From: Bacilli bacterium
GTDB taxonomy: Bacteria; Bacillota_I; Bacilli_A; ML615J-28; CAG-313
Length of the DNA stretch: 64,000 nt
NCBI GenBank assembly: GCA_017463365.1
Contig: JAFTPH010000052.1
Coordinates: 3,276 to 67,275, forward strand
Direction of reading: 5' to 3'
Shown here piece after piece: positions 3,238 to 61,371 of this stretch; positions within the stretch are counted from its first letter, which is position 1, and every line of letters starts with the position of its first letter. Below the pieces are notes generated by a model. The model made no database searches and was not told where the DNA came from. It was given only the letters and a program-made list of their open reading frames with translations. The position numbers and the translations under genes were made by a program.

Positions 3238-3771
3238 TTAATAGTTTTCTTTTCTTACTTCAAAGAAACTTTGAGGGTGTGCACAAACTGGGCAAACACC
3301 TGGAGCTTTTTTACCCATAACTAAATGACCACAGTTACGGCATTCCCACATAGTTTGTTCACCTTTTTCAAATACTTGTTGCATTTGAACGTTATTTAAT
3401 AATGCACGATATCTTTCTTCATGAGCTTTTTCAATAGCTGCAACAGCTCTGAATTGATAAGCTAATGTTGTAAATCCTTCTTCTTCTGCAACTTTTGCGA
3501 AATTATAATACATATCAGTCCATTCATAGTTTTCACCTTCTGCAGCTGCAAGTAAATTTTGAGCTGTATCTCCAAGTTCACCTAATGCTTTGAACCACAT
3601 TTTAGCATGTTCTTTTTCGTTGTTTGCAGTTTGTTCAAAAATAGCAGCGATTTGTTCATATCCTTCTTTTCTTGCTACACTTGCGAAATAAGTGTATTTG
3701 TTTCTCGCTTGACTTTCTCCAGCAAATGCCGTCATTAAATTTTGTTCTGTTTTAGATCCTTTTAATTCCAT
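3238..3771 (-). CDS. rbr: rubrerythrin (ferritin-like diiron domain plus C-terminal rubredoxin-like CxxC…CxxC)
   Basis: 177 aa with ExxH diiron motifs and a C-terminal CRNCGH…CPVC. GAGGT RBS. Immediately downstream of the Fur-family regulator. Confidence 0.85.
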
Positions 3772-9000: not shown

Positions 9001-12000
9001 TTTAAGTTAACTTGTGTTTCAGGACGAGCATCAACAATAGTTAATTTAACTGTAACATCTGATGGTTGACTTGAATTATTACCTTTAAATTTAATAATAA
9101 CATTATATTCACCAACAGAATCAATTCCTTTATAATCAATAGTTTTACCTAAAATTGATTCCATATAATAAATATTATTACCTAAGTTAGCGAAGTCTAA
9201 GATACTTCCTTTATAGATAGCTGAAATATAGAATTCAGCATCATCAATTCTGTTGCCTTTTGCATCATATGCAACAGGGTTAAATGCTTTTAACACTTTT
9301 TCAAGTGTTTCAAAATCTGAACCAATTGTACTTAAATCGTCTTCATAAATAGTTACTTCTTCACATTCAGTCTCAGATTCACCACGCATATCTTTAATTT
9401 CAAATGTGATTGTTGTATCACATTTTTGATATTCTGCAGCACCTGGACAACTAATATGAATAGTGTATTTACCAACGTTGTCTAATGGTTCATATGCTTG
9501 AGCCCCATATTCTTTACCTAAAAGAGTTAATCCTTTAGAGTAATAAATTTCAGGATCAGCTAAATCAATTCTTACAATTAAATCAATTTCAAATGTACCT
9601 TGATATGAAACATTGATGCCTTCAAATGTTTCTACTTGTACAGTAGGATTTAAGTAAGCAAGTAATGATTCTAAACTATCAAATTTAACAGGAATTTGAC
9701 CGAAATTATATGCATCATAACTTAAGTTAGGAACATAAATTTCACCAGATGGACGACCATCACTTACTGTGAATGTCATTTCTGTTTCAAAACCTTTAAC
9801 TGTGTCAGTACCAGCATATACAAATGTGATTGTATAATCTGTGGCTTCATCTAATTCTTTATAAGAAACATTGATTGGAATATTATATCCACCAATTTCT
9901 ACTCCTTGTTGAATGTAGTAGAATCCAAGTTTCTTTAATCCTTCTTCTGTTAAATCACTTAAATTTAAATCTTCCCCTAAACTTCCTAAAATATCAGATA
10001 AGTCTAATCCTTTTCTAATACTTGTGATTGTAAGTTCAGAACTATAATATTCTCCGTTTCCAATTTTAACCATCGGATTAATGTATTGAGTTAAAATATC
10101 TAATGATGAGAATAAAGTTTCACTATCTGTTAACTTACTTTCAACATATGTATCATATTCCCATACAAGAGTTGCATCAACACGACCATCGACAACTGTT
10201 AACTTAGCAGTGTATTCACCAGGTTGATATGTATTATCTCCAGCAAAACTTACTGTAACAGTGTATTCACCAAATTGATCTAACCCATTAAAATCTATTA
10301 CTTTATTACTACCAATAATTGGAAGATCGTATCCATTAGGATTATAATAAGCTTTTGTTCCATTAAATACACTAACGATAGATAATCCAGATACACCATT
10401 TACACCATTAACATTAGGAGTTAAGGCAGCTAGTACTTTATCTAAAGTATCAAATCTAGTAGCAATATTTAATCTATTGTCAAATGAAATCATCGGATCA
10501 GTAAATGTTACTGTTGATTCTGCACGAGTATCAGTAACAGTAAATGTAGCTGTTGCTTTTGATCCTTGATGAGTTGCGGTTTCAATAAATTCTAATTCAA
10601 TTGTATATGTTCCAGCTTTATTTAGTGGCACATAATCTTTTACAGGAACAGACACATTACCTAATGTTGTACTAATTGTGTGTTTACCATTTGAGTAGTA
10701 AATATTATCTCTTGATAGAATAGTTCCAGTAAGTGATAATTCACCTTGATAAATAACATTAATAACAACATTACCATCTACACTAATATTATTTTGATTT
10801 TTAATAACACACTCTAAGGCTTCTAATACTTTATCAAGAGTATTGTATTTAGCTTCAAGTTCTAGGAAATTATTAGAGTCAACATTTGGATCTATCCAAT
10901 CAATTGATGTAGTCGGACGAGTATCTTTAATTTCAATTACGGCAGTACCAGTACATCCTAATGTTGTATCTGTTGCTTCATATTCGAATGTAACAGTGTA
11001 TAAACCAGGTTTAACAATAGGGTCTTTGTATGCCCCACCAGAAATAATTTCAGTAATATCATATTCTTCATAATATGACACTTCATTTTCGTCAACAATC
11101 GATTTAATCTTAACATTTGGTGAAGAAATTGTTTGATCACCTATAATTAACGAAATTGAGAATTTCTTTAATACATTGTCTTTTAATTTAAAATCATTTG
11201 CAAGTGTCGTATGATTACTATACTCTAATTCAACATCTGGAATAGATAATTTAGTTGTTGAACGACCATCTTGTAAACTTAAAATTGCTGTAACAGTTTG
11301 TGCAGGTTTATGAGTATTGTCACCTTCAAAGCTTAGGGTAATTACATAATTTCCTACAGCATTAACTGTCTTATCAGCTGTTGCTTTAATTACTAATCCA
11401 TCAGCTTTTGTAATTTGATTGTTAATTACATTTTCAATATAAGCATTAACAGCTGTAACTAATTTTTCTGATGAATTATATTTAATATTAATTGCACTAC
11501 TATTAATATTTGGTTCATTAACAACGATTGGTGTATTAGAAACATTGATTCTTGTATCAATACGATTATCGTTAATTGTTAATTGAATAGTATTTGTAAT
11601 ACCTTTATATGTTTCAGATTCTGTTAATCTATAAGTAATGTTATAAACACCATTTCCTTTATTAATTTTTGTAATTCCACTAATACTGAAATGTGAATCA
11701 TTAATTTCAGAAATAGATGTAATAGCACCACCATTTAATTCAATATTTGATTTAATAATTGCTTTTACTTTACTAATACTATCAACTATTGAGAAATCGT
11801 CTACTGTAAGTTCAATATCATCAATTGAAATTTCAGTACGAGTATCATCAATTGTAAAGCGAATTCGTTTTGTGCATTCTTTATATAGATCAGTTGCATT
11901 ATATTTAACATAAATATCATATGTTCCAGCTAATCTAACTTGTTCTACTGAACTATCATTTAATAAAATTTCAGTAATTTCTACAGTTGCACCAGCAACA

Positions 12001-15000
12001 TCTTTAACAGCAATATTTAATTCACTAATAATATTAAATACCTTATTAAAGTTATCAGTTGCTAAACCTTTTGGAGTATAAGTAATTTCAGTAGCAATAC
12101 GGTTGTCATTAACAACAACTTTTACTGTTGCATTACTTGTACCATAAGAACTAGTTGCTTCAACTGCGAAAGCAATAGTGTATGTTCCAGCAGCATTGAT
12201 TGTACAATCTGTACCATTAATGTATGAATTATTTTCAGCATCAACAATACTTTGAACAACGATTGTTGGATTTTCAACTACACTTTCACCAATTAAAACT
12301 TTAACATTTAATTGATTAATAATTTCAGCAAGTGTATCAATTGTACCAAAGTCAGTAACATTTAATGTAACTGTATTTGCTACATCAATTGTACATGGAG
12401 TACGTCCATCAGTAATAGTGATTGTCGCATGACTTGTACATTCATTATGAGTATCATCTTCAACATATTTAAATGTTACTTTGTATGTAGCAATATTTGA
12501 AATAAATGTGTTATAGTCCCCACCACTATAAATAACTTCTTTTACATTTCCATCTCTGTCTAGTTCTTCAATTCTTGTAATAACAACATTTGGTGAAACA
12601 ATTGTTTCAGTTCCATCGTTAACTACAACATTGAATTTAGCTAAAACACTTTCAAGAGTCTTGAAGTTTTCAGCAATTGTAGCTGAAGTGCTTGCGTCAA
12701 ATGGAACATTTTCAACAGTCATAGTTGTTGTTTTACGACCATTTGTTAATTCAATTTTTTTATAAACTTCAACTGATGGTTTATGTGTCATATCTCCATT
12801 GAATTTTAATTCAATGTAATAAGTTCCAATACTATTAATTGTTTCATATCTTGTAACAACAATGTTAGATGCATCTAAGGCTGTACCAGTTGTAACGATA
12901 GTTGCATTTAAAACATTTCTAATTTCTGAATCTTCATCATATTTACCAGCGATTGCTGAATAATCAGGTTCAGCGAATGAATAATCTTTTGCTTCAATGC
13001 TTGTTTCAGAACGGGTATCATTAACTGTTAATGTAACTTTAGCTGTTGTTGCTTTATAAGTTTCTGACTCAGCAACTGTAACTTTTAATTCATAAGTTCC
13101 ATCATATCCTACAGGAATACTTGTAATTCCATTACCTATTGTAACAGTAACTTTATTTGCATCAATAGTTACTTCTTGACCGTTTGCATTAGCAGTTAAA
13201 TTGTTTAATACAAGAGTTTTAATTTGAGCAATAATGTCTTTACCATAATCAGGGACATTAATACTTAATTCGCTAGGAATAGTTGGTTCAGGACGAGCAT
13301 CAACAAGTGTTAATGTCGCAGTTTGAGTACATGGTTTATGTGTATTATCTCCAGCAAATTTGAATGTAATTGTATGACTACCATAATCAGTAATCGCATC
13401 AATTAATTCACCATCGATATCAGAAACTGAAACAGTTCCAGCTACCATAGCATTTCCATTAACAACAATTCCAGCTTTAAATAAGTTTAGAATTGCAGCT
13501 TTATCAAAAGTTCTTCCAATACTTGCCCAATTTGTGTTGTAAATATCAACTGGTTCGATTGGAGCAACTGTCATTGTACTTGCTTGTCTTTGATCAGTTA
13601 ATTTAAGGTTAACTGTAACTTCTTTAACTGTAACTTTATAAGATTTTGTATCTTCTAAATGTAATCTGATTGTATATGTACTAATTTGATCAAACTTTAC
13701 AAATCCTTTTCCAGGAATATCAATTTTATAACTTCCTATTGGATAATAAGCATCACTATCTGCATAGTAAACACCTAAGTCATCAACATCATCTATGCTA
13801 TTTATTGTTCCAACATAGATTGCAGAAATTCTTGGTTTAATAGATAGATCTTTAACTCCACCTACACTTACGTATGCACCTAATTCTTCTAACACTTTAT
13901 CTAAGCTATTAATTGAATATAAATCTTCATTTAAATTATCAACACCAACGCTCGTATTAGGAACACTAATTACAGCAGTAGGACGTACATCTATAATAGT
14001 TAATGTTGTTTCTAATGTTTTTGCATTACATGTATCACTGTCTTCAACAAATACAGTAACTGTGTATTCACCAGCACTTGTAATACCATTATTTCCACCA
14101 TTTACTTTAATTGTATAAGTTTGTTTTGATAAATCAAGGATATTTCCTTTTTCATCTTTAATATAATTTTTTATTAACTCTAATACTTCAAGTGCAGTAT
14201 CAGTTGTATTGAAATCACTAACTTCTTTAGAGATATTTTCATCAATTACTGGATTGATACGTTTATCTTCTAAAGTTAATGTTACTGATTTAGGTTCTGA
14301 TTTATAATCATGAGTATCATCATCAATATATTCAATAGTTACTGTGTATACTCCAACTTTAGTTAATGCAGTTAATTCATTCTTACCTGCGTCAGTAATA
14401 GTTACTTTAACATTACCATTGTTAACTAATGTCATATAGTTTTGAGCAGTACCATCAAATTTAACACTTAAATTGATTGTTTTTAAGATTTCTTCTAAAG
14501 TGTCAAATTGACCTGGAATTTGTGATAAATCAGCAAATCCAATACCAGGATTAGACACATTATTTGCGTCAATCGTTACAACTGAACGCTTATCTTTAAT
14601 ATCGAATGAAACTACTAATTCAGCTTTGTGATTTGTATTTGACTCAGGATATGTTACTTTAATTGAATAGTTACCTACTTTTTCAATAACATTTCCAGTT
14701 TCATTATAATAATTTTTATCACCATCACTAACTGTATAAGTTAATTTACCTAATCTGTTAGCTTCATTACCATTTACTAATACTTTTAATCCAATGATTT
14801 TAAATAGATCATCAATAGTAGTAAATTTAGATGAAATTGCATCTTTACTAATATTTGAAACAGGATATTCATTTACTGTATTTTGAAGAACAATAACTTC
14901 ACGTCCATCAATAACATTAATTGTTACTTCTTTGTTTTCTGCAGCAAGATGAGTATCTGTTGCTGCGTAAGATAAAACAACTTTATAAGTTCCAACTTTA

Positions 15001-18000
15001 GTGAATGGAATAAATTCTTTACCAGCTTGGTAATATAATACAGTAGCTCTTGTATCAGCATTATCATCAAAATAGATATAACTGATTGTAGGTTTAAATT
15101 TACCATTTACATTTGCTTCTAATAAAGTGATAATAGCATCTAATGAACTAAATTTATCATCAATTAAATTTAAATCAGCAAATGTTTCTGTAATACTATT
15201 AGCATTAATTGTAGTTGCTGCACGATTATCAGTTACTTCAAAGTTAACTACACATTGATTTACAGGTTTATTTGTATCATCTGTTGGATATGTTAATGTA
15301 ATTGTATATACTCCAAGAGCATCAATTGTATTAACAATATTTCCTGCGTTATCTGTAATTTTAATTTCAACTTTTGCTAAACGAGTATTATCAGCATTTC
15401 CATTAACTTTTACACTTACACCTAATTGTGCTAATAAATCAGCTTCATTTGCTAAAGCAGCTTTAATTGCATCAGCACTAATATCTGTTGCTTCATATTC
15501 AGTATTTGTATATGTAATTTCAATTTCTTCACGTGCATCATTAACTACTAATGTAATTTCTTGACTACATGGAGCACTATCATTATCACCAGCGAAACTT
15601 AATACTACTGTATATTCTCCTGCTTTGTTAATTGTAACTCCATTTTTAACTGTTGCAGTAAGAGGACCAGCAGTAAATTTATATTCAACTTCATCATTAA
15701 TTGCATTAACAATTTCTTCACTAGTATCTAAACCAGTTTCTAAACCGCTTAATGTAGGCACATCAATAGTTACTCTTGTAGGGAAAGCAATTGAAGTTGC
15801 AGCACGCTCAATTTTGAATGTGAATGTTAATGCACTTGCTTGGTTAGTTTCACTACCTTGAATAGAAATAGTTACTGTATAAGTTCCGTCATTTACAAGG
15901 TTAAGTGTTGAATCATTATAATATTCATTACCTTCAGCATCTACGATACTTGAGATAGCAACTAAATTTGTATTTACAACATTTCCATCAGCATAAACTG
16001 CAGGAATAATTTCTTTAATTGCAGCTAATGTAGCATCATTTAATTTAGCATATACTTTTTCAGTATAAGTATCTAAAGTAACAACTGGACGGTTATCGAC
16101 AATTGTAAATGTTGCAATTGCAAATGATTGCTTAATAGTATTTGTTTCATATACAAAAGTAATTTGATAAATACCTACAGCATCAATTGCGTTCTTAGTT
16201 TGCCAATCATCACTTTTATTTACTTTAAATTTGATTTCACCAAATTTAATATTTGCATAATCAATAGAAGTAACTAATTGACCATTCACTGTTAATTCAA
16301 CATTTCCAATTATATCTAATACTTCTTTTGGAGTATCAAATAAATCATTAATAGTTGATGAACTAGTAGATGGAGTATTATATGAACCAGTACCATTCAT
16401 ACTTAAACTTGAAGATAAACGAGCATCAACAAGTTTAAATCCTAATGTTTGTGTTAATGGTTTATATGTATCGCTTCCTTCAATCTTGATTGTTACACTA
16501 TATGTAGTCTCAAATTCAACATTTTCAGGATCTGCATAAGTATCAACTGTTGCATTAGCTAAATTTACTTCTAATGTATTTAAGATATTATCTTTAGCTA
16601 ATAAAGTATCAATTGTGCTAATATCTGTAATATCAATTTCTGAATCATAAGTTACTGTATATACTGAACGAGTATCTTTAATCTTTAAAGTTACTGTTTG
16701 TTCAGGTAATCCGAAATATTTATCATTTTCGTTTACTTTAACTTTTACAGTATATGTAGCATCACCATAAGGAATCTTATCAGTGGCGTTATAATTTGTA
16801 ACCGATACAGTAATATCGCTATCTAATATAGTTACACCATTAGCAATTGTTAACTTATCAATTATTAATTTTCTGAATGTTAAATCAGCAAAATCACTAA
16901 CTTCAACTTCAATTGAAGAATTAATTGCAGGTCTTGGTCTAACATCTGAAATTTTTAATGTTATGGTAACTGGAGTTGCAGGTTTATGAGTTTCATCACC
17001 CTTACAACTTAATGCAATTGTATAAGTTCCTACAGCACCAATTCCTGTTTCAGTTTCTTCTGTTATTGTATTACCATTAACTGTAATTACTGAAGCTGCA
17101 CCATTTAATTTAAATTGCACTCCATTTGCTACAAGAAGATCAACTAATTCAGCTAATGTGTCATATGCAGAAGTACGTTCTAATTTAGAACTAAATTCTT
17201 TTGTAATTTCATTTGTTGGAACATAGAAACCAGTTTCAGTACGTCCATCATTAAGTGTGAATATTACAGTTGATTCTCCAGATCTATATTTACTATTACC
17301 ATCGTAATCAATTGTAATTTTATATTGCCCAGCTGAAGTTATTTTAGTTACTTCAGTAGTTTTTAAACTTGCATTTGAAATAGTTTCTAATGCTTCATAT
17401 TGTCCACTTGTTGAATTATATTTTTCAATAATTAATGAAAGTCCACCAATTGTTTCAGCAAGTAATCCGTATTTTGTATTTTGAATAGCACTTAATAATC
17501 CTGTTGCTCCAATAGTAGTTAATAAAGTTTCTAACTTACCATATCCAGCAAGCTCAGTTAAACTTATAAATGCACATGTTGTATCTTTAACATTAAAAAC
17601 ATAAACTTCACGAGCATCAACTACTTCAAATTGAATTGTTCCAGCAGTTGCTTTATAAGTTTCAGTATCTAAAACTACAAATGCAATATTATATATTCCA
17701 GTTGTAGTAATTGGTTTATAACTTACTGGATTTTCTGAATCAGTATTATATAAGCATTCATTATTAGAATTTGTAATACTTAAAATACTAAAAGTAGTTA
17801 CATGCATTTTATCATTTAAAAGCATCGTTTTAATTTCATCTAAAGTATCGATTTTACTGTAATCACTTACAATGTCATATAAATTAAATTTATAATTAGT
17901 AAAACTTAATTCTTCACGAGCATCAGTTACATTTAATGTAACTTCAGTTTCTGCCATTGCTTTATAAGTTTCATTTTCTGCAACTGTAACTTTAATAACA

Positions 18001-20315
18001 TAATTTTTAGTTCCATATGGAATTTTTCCATCTGTAACACCTGTAATTGTTACATCGCTTTCAGCAACTTTAACATCTAATTTGCTAATTAAATATTCTT
18101 TAAATGTAACAACACCTTTATAATCAGTAATTGTTTCATTAAATGTAGTAGCAGTAATATTTGGAGTTGTACGACTATCTGTTAATGTAGCAGATACATA
18201 ACAGTTAGAATAAACACCAGATAAGTATACTCTTACACTTTCAGAATATGTTTGATTTTTGCTCCAATCAGTACCGAATCTATCAAACGAACTTCCATCA
18301 GTTATTACAACCCATTTATCTTGACCAGCATGATTTTCTTCAAATTGGATTGTAACATTATTAATGTTAAATACATCTTTTGTAGAATCCTTTAATACAT
18401 CATAAATCTTTTGTTTTAATTTATCACCAGTAATACTTGTGATATTATAATAACTAATTTTTGTTGACGCAAAACCAAATCCAGCGTTTGCTATTGGTGT
18501 TGCTTCAACGCTTAAATTATATGTTGTTTTAGTACTAGCAGTAGTGAATGTTCCTGTCCATGTAGCACCATTCCAAGAACCGTTAATTGCTACACCATCT
18601 AATAATATTTTACTAGCTTCAAGATAGTATTGTGAAGAAGGAGTAATTGTAATTGTAACATCTTGACCAGCAGGCAATGTTGCTCCACTAGTCTCTTTAA
18701 CTTCTTCATTTACTGTAGCTGTAACAGTTGCATTAGATACAGTCCAATTTAATGTTGAATCAGTATCTTGTCTTATCACCAATGTAACTGTTTTACTTTC
18801 AGCTGCAAGATAATCAATATTTTCAGCATAATTAAATTTAATTGTGTAATCACCAAAATCAGAAATTGCAGCACCAGATAGATTTGTATATTCACTTCCA
18901 TTAATAGTTACACTACTAAAAGATTTTCCATTATCAATATTAGCATTAAACATATTAATAATATCTTGAAGTTTAAAATCTTGGCTTTCTTCAAATTCTT
19001 TTTCTATTTTATCTGGAGAAGCAGAAATTGTAGGTTTAGATCTTTTTTCAGTTAATTTTGTTTCAGGAATAACACATTTACCATATTTACCAGATAAATA
19101 CACCTTTACATTTTCATATGTTTGTATTTTATCTTCACCAACTACAGTATTAAGTAAGAATTTTGATTCATTTCCAGATAAATCAATCCATTGGTTTCCT
19201 AAATAATACTCCCAATAAATTTCTATTTTTCTATAATCTAACTTTTCATCTTTACCTTCATTTAGAGCATCCATTATTCTATTTGCAATTGGATATTCAG
19301 ATGAAGTAGGACTAAATAAACTAATTTGAGTAGTATCAAACTTAAACTCATGTTTAGTCGCATTAACCGTTAATATATAATCTGTAGCAGTTGAAGTAAT
19401 TGTATAAGATCCAGTCCATACACCTTCACTTGACCATCCGCCATCTTTATTATACGTTGCACCAGGTAAACTAATATTAGTTGATGGATCAACATAATAA
19501 TCAGTTGATGGTGTAAGTCTAATATAAATCTTTGTCCCTAAAGGTAAAGATGTAGTTGATGTTAAAGCAGAAAAACTTCCAGAATCACCAATTTTTATTT
19601 CAGCAGTAACATTATTGAGAGCTGGCTTAATAGTTGATTCTTGTGTATATGTAATATTTAATTCTACATTACTTTTTAAAGTATTCGAAATGCTATATAC
19701 ACCATTAACGGCTTCAACAGCAACTGTATTATTTTCAACAACTAATTTATGATTACTTAAAAGATTTGATGATGGAGTATAAGTAATAGTTGTTCCATTA
19801 ATTGAAAGCGAATCATAATTATCTGCTGTGTACTCTTTAACGGTATTTGAGTCAACATAAAGGGTTTCTAACAGAGCATTTTGACCACCAATTGAAATAG
19901 TAACATCTAATATATATTCATATACATCAATTGTAACACTTTTCCCTGACATAATTGAACATTTTGTAGGTGACCAACTTGTACCTAAACCACTAAAAGA
20001 ATATATTTGAATAACATCATTCTCATTGAAAGATAATGTATTTCCGGCCCCATTATTTAATGTGCTATAAGTGATTCGTTCAGGGGTCCCACCATTAACA
20101 GAATATCCATAACTACCAGTACTAGCCGAAGAATTACTAAATCCAAATATGCTAACTAAAAGTTCTTTTTCAGTAGTTATACCATTTTTCAAATGAACAA
20201 CTGATCCATCTATCACATACTCTGCCTCTACCTCTACATTAGTAGATGTGAAACCTAGGATAGATACTACAGCAATCATTGCTATAAATAATCTTAATAA
20301 AAATTTTCTATTCAT
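6009..20315 (-). CDS. giant (4768-aa) secreted, repeat-rich surface protein (putative adhesin)
   Basis: Single 14.3 kb ORF. ATG start with an AAGGAGGTG RBS. N-terminal signal peptide MNRKFLLRLFIAMIAVVSILGF. About 35-40 tandem ~100-aa repeats ending in a T-x-T-L-x-V-x-D-x-R hinge, consistent with Ig-like/beta-sandwich modules. An MBG-like segment (…FKYNGMPQG…NVGFYTVTAIYNN…). A C-terminal Cys-rich 39-aa repeat x3, then an F-rich segment, then an acidic tail. No LPXTG. Confidence 0.85.
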   Translation of the reverse strand: MNRKFLLRLFIAMIAVVSILGFTSTNVEVEAEYVIDGSVVHLKNGITTEKELLVSIFGFSNSSASTGSYGYSVNGGTPERITYSTLNNGAGNTLSFNENDVIQIYSFSGLGTSWSPTKCSIMSGKSVTIDVYEYILDVTISIGGQNALLETLYVDSNTVKEYTADNYDSLSINGTTITYTPSSNLLSNHKLVVENNTVAVEAVNGVYSISNTLKSNVELNITYTQESTIKPALNNVTAEIKIGDSGSFSALTSTTSLPLGTKIYIRLTPSTDYYVDPSTNISLPGATYNKDGGWSSEGVWTGSYTITSTATDYILTVNATKHEFKFDTTQISLFSPTSSEYPIANRIMDALNEGKDEKLDYRKIEIYWEYYLGNQWIDLSGNESKFLLNTVVGEDKIQTYENVKVYLSGKYGKCVIPETKLTEKRSKPTISASPDKIEKEFEESQDFKLQDIINMFNANIDNGKSFSSVTINGSEYTNLSGAAISDFGDYTIKFNYAENIDYLAAESKTVTLVIRQDTDSTLNWTVSNATVTATVNEEVKETSGATLPAGQDVTITITPSSQYYLEASKILLDGVAINGSWNGATWTGTFTTASTKTTYNLSVEATPIANAGFGFASTKISYYNITSITGDKLKQKIYDVLKDSTKDVFNINNVTIQFEENHAGQDKWVVITDGSSFDRFGTDWSKNQTYSESVRVYLSGVYSNCYVSATLTDSRTTPNITATTFNETITDYKGVVTFKEYLISKLDVKVAESDVTITGVTDGKIPYGTKNYVIKVTVAENETYKAMAETEVTLNVTDAREELSFTNYKFNLYDIVSDYSKIDTLDEIKTMLLNDKMHVTTFSILSITNSNNECLYNTDSENPVSYKPITTTGIYNIAFVVLDTETYKATAGTIQFEVVDAREVYVFNVKDTTCAFISLTELAGYGKLETLLTTIGATGLLSAIQNTKYGLLAETIGGLSLIIEKYNSTSGQYEALETISNASLKTTEVTKITSAGQYKITIDYDGNSKYRSGESTVIFTLNDGRTETGFYVPTNEITKEFSSKLERTSAYDTLAELVDLLVANGVQFKLNGAASVITVNGNTITEETETGIGAVGTYTIALSCKGDETHKPATPVTITLKISDVRPRPAINSSIEVEVSDFADLTFRKLIIDKLTIANGVTILDSDITVSVTNYNATDKIPYGDATYTVKVKVNENDKYFGLPEQTVTLKIKDTRSVYTVTYDSEIDITDISTIDTLLAKDNILNTLEVNLANATVDTYADPENVEFETTYSVTIKIEGSDTYKPLTQTLGFKLVDARLSSSLSMNGTGSYNTPSTSSSTINDLFDTPKEVLDIIGNVELTVNGQLVTSIDYANIKFGEIKFKVNKSDDWQTKNAIDAVGIYQITFVYETNTIKQSFAIATFTIVDNRPVVTLDTYTEKVYAKLNDATLAAIKEIIPAVYADGNVVNTNLVAISSIVDAEGNEYYNDSTLNLVNDGTYTVTISIQGSETNQASALTFTFKIERAATSIAFPTRVTIDVPTLSGLETGLDTSEEIVNAINDEVEYKFTAGPLTATVKNGVTINKAGEYTVVLSFAGDNDSAPCSQEITLVVNDAREEIEITYTNTEYEATDISADAIKAALANEADLLAQLGVSVKVNGNADNTRLAKVEIKITDNAGNIVNTIDALGVYTITLTYPTDDTNKPVNQCVVNFEVTDNRAATTINANSITETFADLNLIDDKFSSLDAIITLLEANVNGKFKPTISYIYFDDNADTRATVLYYQAGKEFIPFTKVGTYKVVLSYAATDTHLAAENKEVTINVIDGREVIVLQNTVNEYPVSNISKDAISSKFTTIDDLFKIIGLKVLVNGNEANRLGKLTYTVSDGDKNYYNETGNVIEKVGNYSIKVTYPESNTNHKAELVVSFDIKDKRSVVTIDANNVSNPGIGFADLSQIPGQFDTLEEILKTINLSVKFDGTAQNYMTLVNNGNVKVTITDAGKNELTALTKVGVYTVTIEYIDDDTHDYKSEPKSVTLTLEDKRINPVIDENISKEVSDFNTTDTALEVLELIKNYIKDEKGNILDLSKQTYTIKVNGGNNGITSAGEYTVTVFVEDSDTCNAKTLETTLTIIDVRPTAVISVPNTSVGVDNLNEDLYSINSLDKVLEELGAYVSVGGVKDLSIKPRISAIYVGTINSIDDVDDLGVYYADSDAYYPIGSYKIDIPGKGFVKFDQISTYTIRLHLEDTKSYKVTVKEVTVNLKLTDQRQASTMTVAPIEPVDIYNTNWASIGRTFDKAAILNLFKAGIVVNGNAMVAGTVSVSDIDGELIDAITDYGSHTITFKFAGDNTHKPCTQTATLTLVDARPEPTIPSELSINVPDYGKDIIAQIKTLVLNNLTANANGQEVTIDANKVTVTIGNGITSIPVGYDGTYELKVTVAESETYKATTAKVTLTVNDTRSETSIEAKDYSFAEPDYSAIAGKYDEDSEIRNVLNATIVTTGTALDASNIVVTRYETINSIGTYYIELKFNGDMTHKPSVEVYKKIELTNGRKTTTMTVENVPFDASTSATIAENFKTLESVLAKFNVVVNDGTETIVSPNVVITRIEELDRDGNVKEVIYSGGDYNTFISNIATYKVTFKYVEDDTHNECTSHATITITDGRTPCTIDVANTVTLNVTDFGTIDTLAEIINQLNVKVLIGESVVENPTIVVQSIVDAENNSYINGTDCTINAAGTYTIAFAVEATSSYGTSNATVKVVVNDNRIATEITYTPKGLATDNFNKVFNIISELNIAVKDVAGATVEITEILLNDSSVEQVRLAGTYDIYVKYNATDLYKECTKRIRFTIDDTRTEISIDDIELTVDDFSIVDSISKVKAIIKSNIELNGGAITSISEINDSHFSISGITKINKGNGVYNITYRLTESETYKGITNTIQLTINDNRIDTRINVSNTPIVVNEPNINSSAINIKYNSSEKLVTAVNAYIENVINNQITKADGLVIKATADKTVNAVGNYVITLSFEGDNTHKPAQTVTAILSLQDGRSTTKLSIPDVELEYSNHTTLANDFKLKDNVLKKFSISLIIGDQTISSPNVKIKSIVDENEVSYYEEYDITEIISGGAYKDPIVKPGLYTVTFEYEATDTTLGCTGTAVIEIKDTRPTTSIDWIDPNVDSNNFLELEAKYNTLDKVLEALECVIKNQNNISVDGNVVINVIYQGELSLTGTILSRDNIYYSNGKHTISTTLGNVSVPVKDYVPLNKAGTYTIELEFIETATHQGSKATATFTVTDTRAESTVTFTDPMISFDNRLNIATRFDTLDKVLAALTPNVNGVNGVSGLSIVSVFNGTKAYYNPNGYDLPIIGSNKVIDFNGLDQFGEYTVTVSFAGDNTYQPGEYTAKLTVVDGRVDATLVWEYDTYVESKLTDSETLFSSLDILTQYINPMVKIGNGEYYSSELTITSIRKGLDLSDILGSLGEDLNLSDLTEEGLKKLGFYYIQQGVEIGGYNIPINVSYKELDEATDYTITFVYAGTDTVKGFETEMTFTVSDGRPSGEIYVPNLSYDAYNFGQIPVKFDSLESLLAYLNPTVQVETFEGINVSYQGTFEIDLIVRIDLADPEIYYSKGLTLLGKEYGAQAYEPLDNVGKYTIHISCPGAAEYQKCDTTITFEIKDMRGESETECEEVTIYEDDLSTIGSDFETLEKVLKAFNPVAYDAKGNRIDDAEFYISAIYKGSILDFANLGNNIYYMESILGKTIDYKGIDSVGEYNVIIKFKGNNSSQPSDVTVKLTIVDARPETQVNLKSDVVTQVLPTDYVTKEEVFNLVFESVSIKGNTASIVDYGYVSANVTLNSLSSATNTEITQITEAGVYTITVKFPATSTHLGSEATVEFMVSDGRNVTKVTNNDVLEIPFVKGDVLSLDQIVEDLGIGLYDETNGVVLNKEFTYALYRGTTEIQASSITTFGQTYTILVNYAGDDEYAPCSKRVEFTVVDGRTKTYIDAATSISVVYNNYTAEDVYNLLLDGYLGAYIINENGIKVAIDKAEIRFSLSDAQIETLNAGDHTITLSYAGSEYDYQPATLTCTITVEKAPAKVNVVSGSFNYKDIKGTGVNISERITTEPELEVIELAIGLNASAGMMSYLNIPNLIDLDSVPESVRPYVQTILDNLGFNEQMSISELKAAIEGIKDALEMLENLVGVSLSSDALDSTIKLLEQLEKISSTTGIEIMLTMGKDIYLEEAGLYLIGAVTTSQNYETAFGLGYITIIPDATKVELGFNVEVENFMVTKASIMQDPTILGAHVKKDGLSQELYEAATSKLATLYIGIDINGEQYVTDQPISELGAYTQIAYTRDLGNEMLYAIPIVRVYTVVIDTISVEFVNDDAEFKYNGMPQGLIPEAYADNGDILPNEYLTCYYNGVMSNGEVYSSTELPTNVGFYTVTAIYNNPELLQYGLAVGTMTIYAEEHGMSLEDVELFHDGEPHNVVINNPYGLEEIILVLGNDTHTVNVILPESWGVKDEFFDIQGQLSPLVKLIHILQLFADNELIDKVEEILSDLPLNSIAVNGDSPVEAGRYEYIVIGYKQNYDLFTGEAVLNLKHNLVAKQTDNYHWQECTICDYYTDFSGHTYGDWQVEQAHTCITDGIETRYCSGCDHFETRTTEATGHLFVEWNKVKNPKCYEVGIEVSTCERCGEAGQRDIATIPHTYTHWEDTVEATTDEPGKAESHCDVCGHVGVKRTPTKTIFEVFEDFFDKLFDFFNSFFNKLNNIINALAGNPDDEETKEQATDDLYDLYFGEEEESKE

Positions 20316-45786: not shown

Positions 45787-46884
45787 TTACTCATAACGAT
45801 GTTCTTTTTTTACTCCAGTCACTACCAATTCATCATTTTGATAAATAGATATCAGTGTACTAGTAACTTTACCGAAATAACTTTCCTCATCCCACTCATC
45901 TATAATATAACTTAATCCACACTTATCACAAACTCCTGAAGTAATTGTATGAGAGATATTATTGGCATCTTCTTTCTTAACTACTGTAACATCACTTATA
46001 ACACAATTGATCTTAATTTCTTGTATTTCATCAATTGACCCACACACTTTACATTTATAACATTCAATGTTTCCACCACATGATGAATATTTAGATAAAT
46101 CAATTATATTTCCACTGGTAATAATATGTCCTGAACTTTTTGATTTAGCAACTTGATCACATTTTTTACATGTTTCAATAATTTCATAACCATTTAAACA
46201 ATCTTCACCACTTAAAATATAGGAAATATCATTATCATGATCATAATAAACTCTTTGATCATAAAATTCACCAATTATTTCATCACCTAAAATAAAGGAA
46301 GAAACAATATAATTTAATACTCCACAATTATCAAAATATTTAGTCCACATCTTTTGTTCATAATTTAATCCACAAGTTTTACACTCTAAAACCGATACTT
46401 CATATTTGTACCCATTAGCATCTTGTTGAATAACAATTTCTTTTTCTTTATTTGGTACAAAATTACAATTACCATTAATAACCATTCTCGTACCAGATGA
46501 ACCACACACCAAACATTCACCTTTAGTAGCCGAATTCATACATACATCATAATTTTCGAAATTAATTGAGACATCCTCAAACTTATGTTTTTCACAACTC
46601 TCAATTGAACCACACTTATAGCATTCACCTTTTTCATACTCATGGCTGCATATGATACTACATTCCTTACACATACCTCTATTCCACTTATGTTCAATTG
46701 GAAGATCATTTTGTTTAGTTATCCCACACAAGTTACACTTACATTCTTCAAGTCCTTCACTTGTACATGTCGCTGAAACTAATTCATACCATTCACCAAA
46801 TTCATGGTTACATTCTTTATCACAGCCAACCAGACATGTTATTAATAAAAACAAAACTATAGAACTTAAAATTACTTTCTTCAA
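45787..46884 (-). CDS. Cys-rich lipoprotein built from W/Cys/His repeat units (putative multi-zinc-ribbon surface protein)
   Basis: 365 aa with lipobox …LLITCLVGCDKE. About 36 Cys in repeated H..GEW…TC…G…C.C..C units. TTG start with an AAGGAG RBS. Confidence 0.6.
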   Translation of the reverse strand: MKKVILSSIVLFLLITCLVGCDKECNHEFGEWYELVSATCTSEGLEECKCNLCGITKQNDLPIEHKWNRGMCKECSIICSHEYEKGECYKCGSIESCEKHKFEDVSINFENYDVCMNSATKGECLVCGSSGTRMVINGNCNFVPNKEKEIVIQQDANGYKYEVSVLECKTCGLNYEQKMWTKYFDNCGVLNYIVSSFILGDEIIGEFYDQRVYYDHDNDISYILSGEDCLNGYEIIETCKKCDQVAKSKSSGHIITSGNIIDLSKYSSCGGNIECYKCKVCGSIDEIQEIKINCVISDVTVVKKEDANNISHTITSGVCDKCGLSYIIDEWDEESYFGKVTSTLISIYQNDELVVTGVKKEHRYE

Positions 46885-47020
46885 AATCTAAATCTCCTTA
46901 TTTTGTTGTTTTTTTAGTTACTTATATTATACAATTAAATTTTATTTATTTCAAATCTTAAATCTTTTATAATTCAGCTTTTATTACAACGCCGATCCCT
47001 ACTTCCCTTAATGAATGAAA

Positions 47021-47046
47021 AAATAGGTCTTATAAAGACCTATAAA
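47021..47046 (-). terminator. rho-independent terminator (ATAGGTCTT-ata-AAGACCTAT followed by a T-run on the minus strand)
   Basis: 9-bp perfect stem followed by TTTTTT on the minus strand. Related to the GGTCT…AGACC hairpins at 1495 and 1897. Confidence 0.6.
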
Positions 47047-50072: not shown

Positions 50073-51503
50073 TTAATGTCTAATATGTAAACGTCTATTT
50101 CTTTGCTTAATAGCTGATCTAATCATCACTACAGCAGTTATTAGAGCTAATACGATTACTGATGCCCAAGTAAGAGGAGTAAGTTCGTTGGCTTTGAAAT
50201 TTGCCCACATTTCTAGTACCGCATCATTTTTATCACCAAAGTCTTCCATTACCCCGCATCTAATAATTGTTTCATAATCTGGGTATTGAGCACTAAATTG
50301 ACGTCCAATATAATGCTCATCAATTGACACAAGGACTTTCCCATTTTCATCTTGATCAACTGTATTTCCAAAGAAATATGTTAAATCCATTTCTACTGCT
50401 GATTCTTCGCTTTCAGCTCCATACCAATCTACAATCATATCTAATACTTCTTGTCCTGCGATGGCACTAGTGTAACCAATTTTATTCATATTTAATACTG
50501 CAATCTCTGGACGAGATAAGAAATCTACAAAATCAGTTGCTAAAGCAATATTCGCACCTTTAGGCATAACCCATCCATCATACCACACATTGCTCCCTTC
50601 TTCAGGAACCGCATAAGCTAAAAGTTTGTCGTCTTCTTCTTCAGCTAAATCCATTGAGTATACCGCATCTCCACTCCAAGCAAGATTCATTGAAATCTTA
50701 CCAGAAACGATATCACTTTTACCACTATCCACTTCTAGCCCAAATAAATTTTCTTTTAATAATTTTAAATCAGTTTCCACTTTAGCAAGAGTATCATCAT
50801 CAGTACGATTCATAATAACATTAACTTGTTTATTATAATCTTCTTGAGAAATCTCCCCATTTAAATAAGCACTTCTTAAAGTATGGAGTTCTTCTTGATA
50901 AACATGCATTACCCCAACAAAATATGTATCACGTACACTATCTTTTGTTGTGGCCATATTTTGATATTTACTATCCCACATTACATTCCAAGTACTTACA
51001 TCTTTTTCATCTATCGCTTCTGGATTATATAATAACCCAACAGTTCCCCACATATATGGAACCGCATATTCTGTCCATCCATTTTTATCAAATAAATCTT
51101 TCAAATATGGAGAAGCATATTGATTATAGTAAGTTAGTTTAGATGTATCAAACTTTTCAAGCATTCCTTCCTTAATCATTTTTTGAATAGTATAATCAGA
51201 AGGACACGCTAAATCATACTGACTCTTACCAGTTTTTAACGTATTAAGCATTGTCTCTGGAGTTTCAAAAGTATCATATACTACTTCAACACTAACTCCT
51301 GTTCTCTTTTTGTAATCCGCAATCCATAAATCAATTACTGGTGTAGATATTTGATCCCCATTATCATCTAATCCATCATCAATGTAGTCTTGCCAGTTAT
51401 AAACTCTTAAAACAACTGATTCTGCTGCTGATACATAAAAAACATTTGTCCAAACAATTATCGAACTAATTAAAGTAAGCAAAACAAATAATAATTTTTT
51501 CAT
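50073..51503 (-). CDS. potD: spermidine/putrescine ABC transporter substrate-binding protein with a C-terminal TM anchor
   Basis: 476 aa with an N-terminal signal peptide, a PotD/PotF SBP fold and a C-terminal hydrophobic helix …LTWASVIVLALITAVVMI…. Confidence 0.8.
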   Translation of the reverse strand: MKKLLFVLLTLISSIIVWTNVFYVSAAESVVLRVYNWQDYIDDGLDDNGDQISTPVIDLWIADYKKRTGVSVEVVYDTFETPETMLNTLKTGKSQYDLACPSDYTIQKMIKEGMLEKFDTSKLTYYNQYASPYLKDLFDKNGWTEYAVPYMWGTVGLLYNPEAIDEKDVSTWNVMWDSKYQNMATTKDSVRDTYFVGVMHVYQEELHTLRSAYLNGEISQEDYNKQVNVIMNRTDDDTLAKVETDLKLLKENLFGLEVDSGKSDIVSGKISMNLAWSGDAVYSMDLAEEEDDKLLAYAVPEEGSNVWYDGWVMPKGANIALATDFVDFLSRPEIAVLNMNKIGYTSAIAGQEVLDMIVDWYGAESEESAVEMDLTYFFGNTVDQDENGKVLVSIDEHYIGRQFSAQYPDYETIIRCGVMEDFGDKNDAVLEMWANFKANELTPLTWASVIVLALITAVVMIRSAIKQRNRRLHIRH

Positions 51504-58564: not shown

Positions 58565-58589
58565 AAAAAAGCCCTAAAGGGCTTTTTTT
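58565..58589. terminator. bidirectional terminator AAGCCC-taaa-GGGCTT with T/A runs
   Basis: Hairpin read directly, 3' of the LRR protein gene. Confidence 0.6.
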
Positions 58590-61371
58590 ATCCAAAAATG
58601 TATTCGTATAATGATTCTTTTTGTTCTTCTTCATCATCCATTGCGAAAATAGATTGAATGAATGAAGAAAATGATTTAGCAACTTGATCTAAATTTAAAG
58701 CATCACTAACTGAACCAGCCATATCTGATGTAGAACCAAAAATATTACCGATACTATCAAAGATATTTCCAATTGCAGTCATACCTCTTTCTATTAAGTC
58801 AGCGAAAGTAACTTTTCTAATTGCTTCTGTTTCAAAATGATCACAGTTAGCACAATCTTTTTGTTTTAATCCTTCTACTTGTGTAGAAGCTTCTTTTACT
58901 ACATACCATTCACCCATAGCATGTCCTGTTGCTGCAATAGGTTGTGTTTCAAAATGATCACAATTAGCACAATCTTTTTGTTCTAATCCTTCTGCTTCAC
59001 ATTTTGCAGGTTCAACTACATACCATTCACCCATAACATGTCCTGTTGCTGCGATAGGTTGTGTTTCAAAATGATCACAATTAGCACAATCTCTTCTTTC
59101 TAATCCTTCTGCTTCACATTTTGCAGCATCAACTACAGTCCATTCATCATAAGTGTGACCTGTTGCAGGAATTTCTTTATATGTTGTATAATCACATTTT
59201 GAACATGTAACATACGCTTCCCAACCAATATTTTCACAATCTTCTACCTTTCCAGCATGTTCTTCTAGTTTATGAATACAGTATCCCCATACTACAGGGC
59301 ATATACCATTCCAGTTATCTGCCCATGTATCAGGTTTAGCTTCAGCTTCACAGTAGATTGTTAGGTTAGGACACACACTAAATACTGACTGATCTAATCT
59401 TGCATCACTAACGCTTAATGGAATATAAACACTCTTTAAATTAGCACAAACTGAGAATGCATTTAAATAAAGTGAAGTTAAACTTTCAGGTAATGTAATT
59501 GTTTCTAAACTTGTACATCTAGAAAAAGCAGATTGTTCAATATAACTTAGAACACTTCCTTCTTCAAAATTAACATTTTTTAAACTTGTACAATTACTAA
59601 ATGCAGAAATAGAAATACCTTTAACTGATTTAGGAATAGTAATTTCTTTTAAATTTATACATCCTTTAAAAGCAGATCCATATATATATTCAATGCCTTC
59701 GGCCAATATAACTTCTTCTAAATTAACACATCCTTCGAACATATAATTGTAAACATACTTAGTTTTTGTATTTTCTTCATATGTTACTTTCGTTAATCCT
59801 TCATAACCATAGAATTTATAATAACCGCTATACCAACTAATACCACTTGGAATAACTACTTCTGTTAAGTAATAATATTCATTATTTTCATCTAATAAAT
59901 AGAATTTTTTAGCTACTGAAATAGGATTACGAGTTTTCTCATTAGTATTTGTTGTTAAAAATCTAGCTAATGTTTTTGCATAATACACATCTTTTATTTC
60001 TGGACATCCATTAAACGCATATTGATTAAAATTACTCAATGTACTTGGTAAAGATAAAGTTTCTAAATTTTCACATCCACTAAATGCAAAAGCACCTAAA
60101 CTTTTAACACCTTCAGATAATGTAATTGATTTAAGATTTTTGCAACTATTAAATGCATTATTGTTAATACTTGTAACACCTTCGGGAGTAACAAAGCTTT
60201 CAGCTTTCTTACCAGCAGGATATGCTAATAATGTTTTACCATCAACAGAATATAATACACCATCAACACTCTTATATGTTTCATTTTTAACATCTACATT
60301 AATTGCTTCTAAACTTGTACATCCTAAAAATTCATTAGCATCAATACTTGTAATTCCACTAGCAATAGTTACACTTGTGATATCAGTGTTTCCAGCAAAT
60401 GTACCAGGTAAAATTTCTGTTACAACTAATCCTTTATATTCCTTTTGAATAATAACATCTTTATCTGTACATGTTCCCATACCAGACAATACAGCTTTTT
60501 TAGGAATATTATAATACTCATCTACAATTGCCCAGTTTACTCCATTTCTAATTCTTTGTGCCAAAAATTCACGAACATATATTTTCCACATAAAAGGACT
60601 ACTAGGCATTTTATTAACCATATCAAAATAATAATTCATTTTCAATGATATGTATTCAAATAACCAACTCCATTTAGCCCACATTGCTTCATCATTTACA
60701 AATGAATCACTATTAGCATTATACATATGGTTGCCAAATTTTGAAGTAAAAGTATTTAAATTAAAATCACCTTCTGTTCCACAATGAGTATTTAAGTCTT
60801 TCATAAAGTCAGCCACTAATGCTTCATGACTTTCATAGTTGTTAGTTGAAACAATTACTTTACCATCTACTGAGATAATACCCTCAACAATTTCATATTT
60901 TAAACCAGCACTTACTTTTTCTCCACAGTTTAAGCATGCACTACCTTCATAGTTATGTCTTAATTCAGGGATTTCTACATATGTTGTATAACAACATTTT
61001 TCACATGTTTGGTAAGCTTGCCAACCAATTTCTTCACATTTTGCTTCTTTTCCAGCATGGTCTACTAGTTTATGATCTCCACAATCTAAAACTAACCATT
61101 TAGCAACATAAGTCCCTGTTGCGTTAACAGCAACAACTTTTTGTTCAGCTAAGTACCATCCTTGGAATACGTAACCATCTCTAGTTGGTACAGGTAAAAT
61201 ATAACCCGTTTCAACAGTAGTTTCAGGTTCACTTGCGAATTCACCACCATTTAAAATGTAAGTAACTTCGTATTTTTGTACTTCACTACTTTCTTCTGCT
61301 TTAATATTGATATTAAATAAACATACTAATACCACTATTAATAAAGAAGTAATTTTTAAAATCTTTCTCAT
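58588..61371 (-). CDS. secreted BspA-type leucine-rich-repeat surface protein with Listeria-Bacteroides repeat, Cys/His/Trp repeats and an acidic C-terminal tail
   Basis: 927 aa with a signal peptide MRKILKITSLLIVVLVCLFNINIKA. Flg_new-like GYVFQGWY. Multiple LRR_5-type repeats (…AFxxCxxLxxIxIP…). A C-terminal triplicated GHxxxEW…C…CANCDHFET…ATGH unit, then an I/F-rich segment, then DDEEEQKESLYEYIFG. Confidence 0.8.
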   Translation of the reverse strand: MRKILKITSLLIVVLVCLFNINIKAEESSEVQKYEVTYILNGGEFASEPETTVETGYILPVPTRDGYVFQGWYLAEQKVVAVNATGTYVAKWLVLDCGDHKLVDHAGKEAKCEEIGWQAYQTCEKCCYTTYVEIPELRHNYEGSACLNCGEKVSAGLKYEIVEGIISVDGKVIVSTNNYESHEALVADFMKDLNTHCGTEGDFNLNTFTSKFGNHMYNANSDSFVNDEAMWAKWSWLFEYISLKMNYYFDMVNKMPSSPFMWKIYVREFLAQRIRNGVNWAIVDEYYNIPKKAVLSGMGTCTDKDVIIQKEYKGLVVTEILPGTFAGNTDITSVTIASGITSIDANEFLGCTSLEAINVDVKNETYKSVDGVLYSVDGKTLLAYPAGKKAESFVTPEGVTSINNNAFNSCKNLKSITLSEGVKSLGAFAFSGCENLETLSLPSTLSNFNQYAFNGCPEIKDVYYAKTLARFLTTNTNEKTRNPISVAKKFYLLDENNEYYYLTEVVIPSGISWYSGYYKFYGYEGLTKVTYEENTKTKYVYNYMFEGCVNLEEVILAEGIEYIYGSAFKGCINLKEITIPKSVKGISISAFSNCTSLKNVNFEEGSVLSYIEQSAFSRCTSLETITLPESLTSLYLNAFSVCANLKSVYIPLSVSDARLDQSVFSVCPNLTIYCEAEAKPDTWADNWNGICPVVWGYCIHKLEEHAGKVEDCENIGWEAYVTCSKCDYTTYKEIPATGHTYDEWTVVDAAKCEAEGLERRDCANCDHFETQPIAATGHVMGEWYVVEPAKCEAEGLEQKDCANCDHFETQPIAATGHAMGEWYVVKEASTQVEGLKQKDCANCDHFETEAIRKVTFADLIERGMTAIGNIFDSIGNIFGSTSDMAGSVSDALNLDQVAKSFSSFIQSIFAMDDEEEQKESLYEYIFG

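Follow-up and report, generated by a model that had tools for sequence, protein, structure and literature searches.

The subject of this work is the gene for a cysteine-rich lipoprotein of 365 residues, located in a 64,000-nucleotide stretch of contig JAFTPH010000052.1 from a Bacilli bacterium (positions 3,276 to 67,275; hereafter the window) with a G+C content of 29%. Judged from sequence comparisons, this lipoprotein is a minimal, two-block member of a large, undescribed family of proteins built from a repeated block of ~150 residues. We consider, with a probability of roughly 0.6, that it is a lipid-anchored, all-beta surface protein whose two blocks carry structural metal sites, most likely occupied by zinc. 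The block-repeat family with the lipoprotein as its minimal member is new, and the short Cys/His module shared with other proteins was already flagged in 2025. The identical protein is on record as hypothetical protein IJX78_06130 from a 'Bacilli bacterium' metagenome-assembled genome (MAG).

A preliminary description of the window had presented the protein as a lipoprotein with about 36 Cys, made almost entirely of a W/Cys/His unit that recurs in two large surface proteins, and had proposed that the unit is a lineage-specific, probably metal-binding module. The lipoprotein reading frame, its lipobox L-V-G-C21 and the two peptides quoted in that description are indeed present. The actual composition is 30 Cys (28 of them in the mature protein), 8 His and 4 Trp, so the Cys count had been set too high. 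The shared unit, designated here as the W-type unit, is defined as H-x4-W-x7-[C/T/S]-x3-G-x5-C-x2-C with a period of ~39 aa.

A family of ~150-residue blocks

A word-indexed homologue search with the lipoprotein retrieved only the lipoprotein itself, and the same result was obtained when the search was repeated with the block alignment. This apparent orphan status was overturned by an exhaustive HMMER search of 1.84 billion cluster representatives, which found many relatives (1323 matches at E<=1e-3, 261 at E<=1e-10 and 52 at E<=1e-30). The top matches are giant proteins, such as P0022 (4262 aa, E 8e-112, 21 matched stretches), P0023 (4981 aa, 30 stretches) and P0025 (5734 aa). The element matched in the proteins fetched from this search is repeated in tandem, with 363 spacings of 140-159 aa. 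A hidden Markov model (HMM) of the block matched the lipoprotein at residues 85-210 (E 2.2e-15) and 216-364 (E 2.1e-48). The internal duplication is also detected within the protein itself: residues ~106-204 and ~260-354 align with a Smith-Waterman score of 90, in comparison with 32 +/- 6 for shuffled sequences (0/2000 reach 90), and BLASTP aligns the duplicated halves at 30 bits. The offset between the two copies is about 154 aa.

The block consensus spans 143 columns and contains three four-ligand Cys/His clusters, one for each of the sub-units A (H+3C; H1, C14, C24, C27), B (H+3C; H38, C54, C63, C66) and C (4C; C79, (H97), C104, C107, C122). Conservation was calculated over 568 near-full-length blocks. 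C14, C24, C27 and C66 were present in 100% of them, C63 and C107 in 99%, and C54 and C104 in 98%; the corresponding values were 88% for H1 and 93% for H38, with Cys (4.8%) as the main substitute at the latter position. The modal number of Cys per block was 10, which equals 3+3+4.

Blocks were identified in 116 of the top 149 representatives, with a median of 8 and a maximum of 22 per protein. The block proteins have a median length of 2,424 aa and reach 5,967 aa and 390 Cys; a lipobox-like N-terminus was observed in 55/114 of those starting with Met, and W-type units are also present in 83 of the 116. Apart from the lipoprotein, arrays in the family run up to 20-30 blocks in chains of 2,000-6,000 aa, many of which are lipoproteins as well. 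Named members come from Bacilli and Clostridia MAGs. The lipoprotein shares with these proteins the same block, with 10 Cys and 2-3 His at conserved positions and 26-30% identity. On the other hand, it differs from them in having two blocks only, the fewest among the complete members inspected, in the insertion of two short knuckles into block 1, and in the absence of C122 from block 2.

A parallel in layout is the 828-aa lipoprotein P0034, 29% identical to our protein over 270 residues (BLASTP E 1e-30), in which a lipobox is followed by a W-type unit and then by blocks, and whose first unit after the lipobox aligns as well. The succession of lipobox and W-type unit is also found in the relatives P0079 and P0121. 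As for genomic context, the P0034 gene (at locus L052 7184..10487, contig ONAT22-1_SAMEA6814674 scaffold_1544) lies directly upstream of a gene for a 2,626-aa Flg_new/LRR_5 protein and downstream of an AAA_21 ATPase gene pair, an arrangement seen in three independent assemblies. The window likewise encodes both a block lipoprotein and a BspA-like leucine-rich repeat (LRR) protein, so that its gene content is echoed here.

Architecture of the lipoprotein

According to the alignments, the lipoprotein is composed of a lipobox, block 1 (sub-unit A, two inserted knuckles, and sub-units B and C) and block 2 (sub-units A, B and C), with the boundaries given in Table 1. Its N-terminus, MKK-VILSSIVLFLLITC-LVG-C21, shows a positively charged n-region, a hydrophobic h-region and a lipobox; the latter was defined as [LVI][ASTVI][GAS]C within about 25 residues, and the signal was judged by inspection only. 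When the mature lipoprotein was aligned by MAFFT with 29 two-block windows of relatives, H27/C40/C50/C53 fell on the invariant ligands of sub-unit A, and residues 65-99 behaved as an insertion relative to the homologues. The spacing of those four residues, H-x12-C-x9-C-x2-C, recurs at H216/C229/C239/C242.

Altogether, eight four-ligand clusters are predicted in the mature protein from the alignment, using 25/28 of its Cys and 7/8 His. In block 1, sub-unit A would contribute the cluster just mentioned, the inserted knuckles are putatively assigned H65/C72/C75/C79 and H81/C88/C91/C97, and sub-units B and C hold H100/C115/C124/C127 and C140/C168/C171/C187, respectively. The predicted sites of block 2 are H216/C229/C239/C242, H253/C269/C278/C281 and C294/H312/C319/C322, with H312 in a plausible position to substitute for the missing last Cys. 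The short knuckle form of block 1 also occurs in the LRR protein of the window (HNYEGSACLNCG) and in P0004.

A Cys/His unit common to three secreted proteins

The two other proteins that carry the W-type unit are a secreted giant of 4768 aa (6009..20315, minus strand) and a BspA-type LRR protein of 927 aa (58588..61371, minus strand) with Flg_new and LRR_5 Pfam domains. The six-frame translation of the window contains exactly 7 copies of the unit, one in the lipoprotein (residues 27-53), three in the giant (4592-4708) and three in the LRR protein (739-855). An HMM trained only on the six copies from the giant and the LRR protein was run over the 401 open reading frames (ORFs) of the window. 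It matched lipoprotein residues 28-55 with an E value of 3.8e-8 (27.5 bits), in comparison with E 0.26 for the next unrelated ORF; the W-type units of the LRR protein, which had trained the model, scored E 1e-22 to 5e-23. The proposal that three unlinked secreted proteins share one short module thus withstands the statistical check to which it had been made subject. A chance or compositional artefact, considered as an alternative, was rejected by the unit HMM statistics and by the shuffle test of the duplication.

The unit is found in three different architectures within one window: after the Ig-like-free repeats of the giant, flanking the BspA-type LRRs, and inside the lipoprotein. In the LRR protein, Cys units stand at both ends of the LRR region. 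The assignment of the N-terminal units rests on spacing and on the presence of the same variants in relatives, because their score against the W-type HMM is at chance level. The N-terminal knuckle of this protein runs into 'GLKYEIVEG...', which by eye resembles the 'CG-L-x-Y' (CGLNY, CGLSY) of sub-unit C in the lipoprotein.

The view that the lipoprotein consists almost entirely of this unit is wrong as it was stated, although the intuition behind it is half right. At the sequence level it contains one copy, and its six other CxxC knuckles match the unit HMM at chance level (domain E 9.9 to 210). At the profile level the remaining sub-units are diverged relatives: an hhalign comparison of the W-type unit with sub-unit A gave 95.7% probability (E 9.5e-9, 36/38 columns) and that of sub-units A and B gave 91.4%, and comparisons with sub-unit C reached 42-68%, over the knuckle only. 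By these values, the W-type unit and sub-unit A represent one module. The block itself gave no convincing HMM match in the giant, the LRR protein or any other ORF of the window, and its presence in those two proteins was rejected on this basis.

Distribution of the unit and database searches

Outside the window, the LRR C-terminus with its three units retrieved proteins that join the unit to SLH, dockerin or CBM_X2 domains, as well as P0004 and P0007, small lipoproteins made only of such units. A search of species-representative genomes with the strict DNA pattern W...G...CxxCDHFET, which covers only the 'CDHFET' sub-variant and does not have the source genome among its matches, identified 51 DNA stretches. 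Their titles all refer to Clostridia, Bacillota or families such as Oscillospiraceae, Acutalibacteraceae and Christensenellaceae, and the sources named in them are animal guts. Single ORFs at these loci reach 15 W-type units and exceed 100 Cys. Since the unit is spread over many gut Clostridia and is also found in an Erysipelotrichales IgA protease, the idea of a lineage-specific module is refuted.

The unit family comprises at least four sub-variants, namely W-type, PTCTxxGYT-type, GW..AY-type and short. Lipoproteins consisting solely of short Cys/His units were observed in L042 (JAZRMT010000113.1, an Eubacteriales MAG), P0004 and P0007, and this group carries more than 10 repeats of a ~28-aa variant, H-x-[WYF]-x-DATC-x2-PKTC-x2-CG-x-TEG. 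In L001 and L031 (Christensenella and Christensenellaceae MAGs), three W-type units and one short knuckle (H...G-x-C-x2-CGGML) repeatedly precede a domain of ~300 aa that looks beta-rich by eye. This layout suggests that arrays of units are usually capped by the short knuckle where they join a globular domain.

The preliminary description had asked whether the repeat belongs to a catalogued zinc-ribbon or Cys-repeat family, and none was found in Pfam or NCBIfam. Pfam gave 0 families for the lipoprotein at E<=1, with no zinc-ribbon, EGF or other Cys-rich family among them, and the Cys units in the two larger proteins, the giant and the LRR protein, had no Pfam match either; NCBIfam gave nothing relevant, and a model of the block is absent from both databases. 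Likewise, Pfam had nothing for P0022 (4262 aa) or P0034 and only a dockerin in P0031, and the module-rich relatives have no model for the unit either. A catalogued zinc ribbon as the identity of the repeat was rejected, given that no Pfam zinc-ribbon model matched at E<=1.

Comparison with known systems

To date, the two IgA protease papers of 2025 are the only accounts of the module found in the literature, and neither of them (PMC12237041, PMC12415215) describes the ~150-aa block or a wider family. A profile of 16 W-type units, that of the lipoprotein included, matched a single entry among all PDB sequences, 9qa6_A (E 2.4e-7), at stretches 862-881, 939-975 and 1106-1130, which lie in or next to the regions ZBD1 and ZBD2 of the Thomasclavelia ramosa IgA protease. 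The LRR C-terminus alone matched this entry with E 0.0025. The lipoprotein alone had no match among PDB sequences, and its link to the protease is consequently one of profiles. In the reading that we favour, sub-unit A and the protease modules are of one kind.

In this M64 protease, ZBD1 and ZBD2 are putative zinc-binding regions formed by three-stranded antiparallel sheets, with sites of 2His+2Cys or 3Cys+1His predicted at sub-domain interfaces and described as 'putative' and 'pending experimental validation' (PMC12237041). The same regions have been named CTD2 and CTD4; small-angle X-ray scattering shows CTD2 as a rod in full extension, and a stalk fold of the periscope type, uncharacterised so far, has been proposed (PMC12415215). 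In this enzyme a rigid rod is predicted to arise as the modules clasp one small beta-sheet to the next, end to end. The protease regions and the W-type unit have in common H-x4-W-x7-[C/T]-x3-G-x5-C-x2-C-...-ETxxIxxxG. Protease regions and lipoprotein are both extracellular, have predicted tetrahedral Cys/His sites, and lack a Pfam model and a structural homologue; the tandem small beta-sheet sub-domains of the protease would have their counterpart in the lipoprotein. The position and context of the modules are different. In the protease they form a C-terminal stalk behind the catalytic domain, with a sortase anchor, whereas in the lipoprotein they directly follow the N-terminal lipid anchor and are part of a triple-site block of ~150 aa with a large beta-meander sub-unit C, a block that the protease does not have.

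Two further systems deserve comparison. Periscope and stalk proteins of the SasG/Aap G5-E type present tandem core-poor beta-sheet repeats on the Gram-positive surface, as is predicted for the lipoprotein, and in the block family copy number varies widely, from 2 to 22 or more blocks across members; the connection between zinc and periscope stalks was drawn by the PNAS authors (PMC12415215). However, SasG and Aap show no sequence or fold match to the lipoprotein, and the zinc of Aap bridges two protomers through His/Asp/Glu, in contrast to the predicted sites of the lipoprotein, which would be intramolecular and all Cys/His. Zinc ribbons and knuckles (Pfam Zn_ribbon, rubredoxin-like, TFIIS C-terminal domain) share the CxxC at beta-turns and the four-ligand clusters, and one IgA protease sub-domain distantly resembles the TFIIS zinc domain according to the PLoS Pathogens authors (PMC12237041). 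The lipoprotein departs from them in its extracellular location, in the single His ligand about 12-15 residues upstream, and in sites that are proposed to link successive sub-domains.

Predicted structure and metal sites

Structure prediction with AlphaFold2 (AF2) from the single sequence gave a predicted local distance difference test score (pLDDT) of 40. With an alignment of 30 sequences, the mean pLDDT was 79.5 and the predicted template modelling score (pTM) 0.61, and the model was all beta. Values were mostly >90 at mature residues 80-345, with about 70-85 around 100-140; by block, sub-units B and C of block 1 scored mostly 70-95 and block 2 >90. Short strands are predicted in sub-units A and B, and each sub-unit C forms a five-stranded meander with strands of 10-13 residues.

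In the mechanism that we propose, each sub-unit would supply one tetrahedral four-ligand cluster, of the types H+3C, H+3C and 4C (or C/H/C/C), and the resulting zinc sites, about eight by prediction, would staple core-poor beta-sheets together, giving a rigid body of the kind suggested for the stalk of the IgA protease. At the surface, the lipoprotein could then be a rigid spacer, a coat or the scaffold of an adhesin. What the sequence analysis shows is homology, a repeat architecture, conserved ligands, an all-beta prediction and signals for secretion and lipidation; both the binding of zinc by these ligands and the function of the protein are inferred. The surface role is a guess, drawn from the tandem arrays, the lipid anchoring, the occasional dockerin fusions and the neighbouring LRR proteins. 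Metal binding, which the preliminary description had held probable, is still the most plausible role for the module, as suggested by the conserved His plus three Cys and by the match to the protease ZBD.

Three features favour metal over disulfides: His is exchanged for Cys in a ligand column, the Cys count is 3+3+4, and the hosts are anaerobes. An extracellular repeat knotted by disulfides, EGF-like or otherwise Cys-rich and free of metal, would fit the location of the protein and the even modal number of Cys per block; moreover, the IgA protease required a reducing agent for monodispersity, so its Cys are prone to oxidation (PMC12237041). We nevertheless regard such a knot as unlikely. H1 and H38 are as conserved as the Cys, and the replacement of H38 mainly by Cys is a ligand-type swap that would be senseless for a disulfide. 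In addition, the sub-units hold three Cys and one His in CxxC-knuckle geometry, no disulfides were seen in the experimental structures or predicted models of the IgA protease (PMC12237041), the hosts are strict-anaerobe gut Bacillota, and the Pfam search returned no EGF or other Cys-rich match.

Other alternatives accept the architecture and assign it a different task. The blocks themselves might bind ligands, the protein being a short adhesin instead of a spacer: the large beta-meander of sub-unit C has five strands and variable residues at its surface, the lipoprotein offers no other element at its tip, P0034 adjoins a 2,626-aa Flg_new/LRR_5 surface protein, and the dockerin in P0031 indicates that some members belong to surface assemblies. 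We give this option the same low credence as the disulfide knot. A role in metal handling, by which surface sites would capture, buffer or deliver zinc or another metal, appears less probable still. About eight predicted sites in 344 residues would suit it, as would the fact that Gram-positive lipoproteins are often solute binders and that a gene for a solute-binding protein (SBP)-type lipoprotein (50073..51503) lies 3 kb away. Fully coordinated Cys3His and Cys4 sites, however, are typical of non-exchanging structural zinc, the gene looks monocistronic and has no metal transporter gene adjacent to it, and the family consists mostly of tandem arrays of 2,000-6,000 aa, which look more like structural fibres than chaperones.

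Several points weigh against the reading of the lipoprotein as a metal-stapled surface protein. Zinc is a prediction only in every member, the sites of the IgA protease ZBD included, and the clustering of the ligands in space rests on alignment, not on coordinates. The ten Cys of a block could pair as five disulfides. Some W-type units have T or S in place of the first Cys, and for this reason an H+3C site is not available to every unit of this type. Model confidence is low (pLDDT <50) over the first 78 mature residues, which include the canonical unit. Finally, the biological role is a guess because no effector domain is recognisable and the neighbouring genes are unrelated housekeeping genes.

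Significance of the block family

The short Cys/His unit is very common in gut Bacillota surface proteins, yet it has no database model or experimental structure, and in the literature it figures in two 2025 papers only, as an unexplained appendage of one enzyme. Among the giant proteins on record, some of those richest in Cys are made of the ~150-aa block, and a family model for it would annotate thousands of 'hypothetical' giants. As a tentative proposal, which we consider possible but short of an even chance, the triple-site block may define an unrecognised large family of lipid-anchored, metal-stapled fibre proteins in gut Bacillota. If this were true, roughly 60-100 structural zinc ions would be bound in each chain of 4,000-6,000 aa, the cell surface would depend on extracellular zinc for its structure, a need that a host withholding zinc might exploit, and the 365-aa lipoprotein would be a convenient minimal model of the fold. 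The lipoprotein, or its 150-aa block 2 (AF2 pLDDT >90), offers a tractable construct for the question of whether zinc-dependent extracellular rods exist.

Gene context and further observations in the window

The positions of the features discussed are collected in Table 1. The lipoprotein gene looks monocistronic, since terminator-like hairpins stand on both sides of it; three sites of this kind were found, in comparison with 0.2 expected. The number of promoter-like sites in the region was not above the shuffle expectation. The neighbours of the gene encode a ROK kinase, an ICMT-like methyltransferase, BacA and a nucleotidyltransferase, which are unrelated housekeeping functions. An operon link to these neighbours was considered and rejected, as the terminators separate the gene from them.

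Table 1. Positions of the lipoprotein gene, its parts and flanking signals, and of the Cys/His units in the two other proteins of the window.
Feature	Residues	Coordinates	Strand	Basis
Lipoprotein gene, 365 aa, TTG start at 46884		45787..46884	minus	ORF list
Signal peptide and lipobox L-V-G-C21 (N-terminus MKKVILSSIVLFLLITCLVGC)	1-21	46822..46884	minus	read from sequence
W-type unit, sub-unit A of block 1 (H27, W32, C40, G44, C50, C53)	27-64	46693..46806	minus	HMM, MAFFT
Two short knuckles, H-x4-G-x-C-x2-C, inserted in block 1	65-99	46588..46692	minus	sequence, alignment
Block 1, sub-units B and C	100-215	46240..46587	minus	block HMM, duplication test, AF2
Block 2, complete	216-365	45790..46239	minus	block HMM, BLASTP, AF2
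Shine-Dalgarno AAGGAG, 9 nt 5' of the TTG start		46899..46894	minus	consensus match
Promoter-like TTGAAA-17-TATAAT, 11/12 matches, ~40 nt beyond the Shine-Dalgarno		46926..46954	minus	consensus match only
Terminator-like hairpin directly after the lipoprotein stop codon		45760..45782	minus	3 sites against 0.2 expected
Second terminator-like hairpin, upstream of the lipoprotein gene		47023..47043
LRR (BspA-type) protein, C-terminus: one GW-type unit and three W-type units	698-738 (GW-type); 739-855 (W-type)	58807..59280	minus
LRR protein, N-terminus: one GW-type unit and one short knuckle	95-152	60916..61089	minus	motif spacing
Giant 4768-aa protein, C-terminus: one degenerate and three W-type units	~4566-4708	6192..6620	minus

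The giant protein had zero Pfam matches at E<=1e-3; by eye, it contains dozens of repeats of ~100 aa ending in '...TYKA...VTLxVxDxR'. Its last ~70-80 residues and those of the LRR protein (6009..6200 and 58588..58800, respectively, both on the minus strand), which follow the Cys units, are alike, and show no LPXTG or transmembrane anchor. Both tails present a Phe-rich amphipathic stretch followed by an acidic run and then by LYDLYFG or LYEYIFG. Their Smith-Waterman score was 47, in comparison with 24.8 +/- 4.6 for shuffles, 3/2000 of which reached 47. This common tail may act in anchoring or sorting, as a C-terminal signal that has so far gone unrecognised. A similar ending (...IQQIMGIFGDKE) was observed in P0010.

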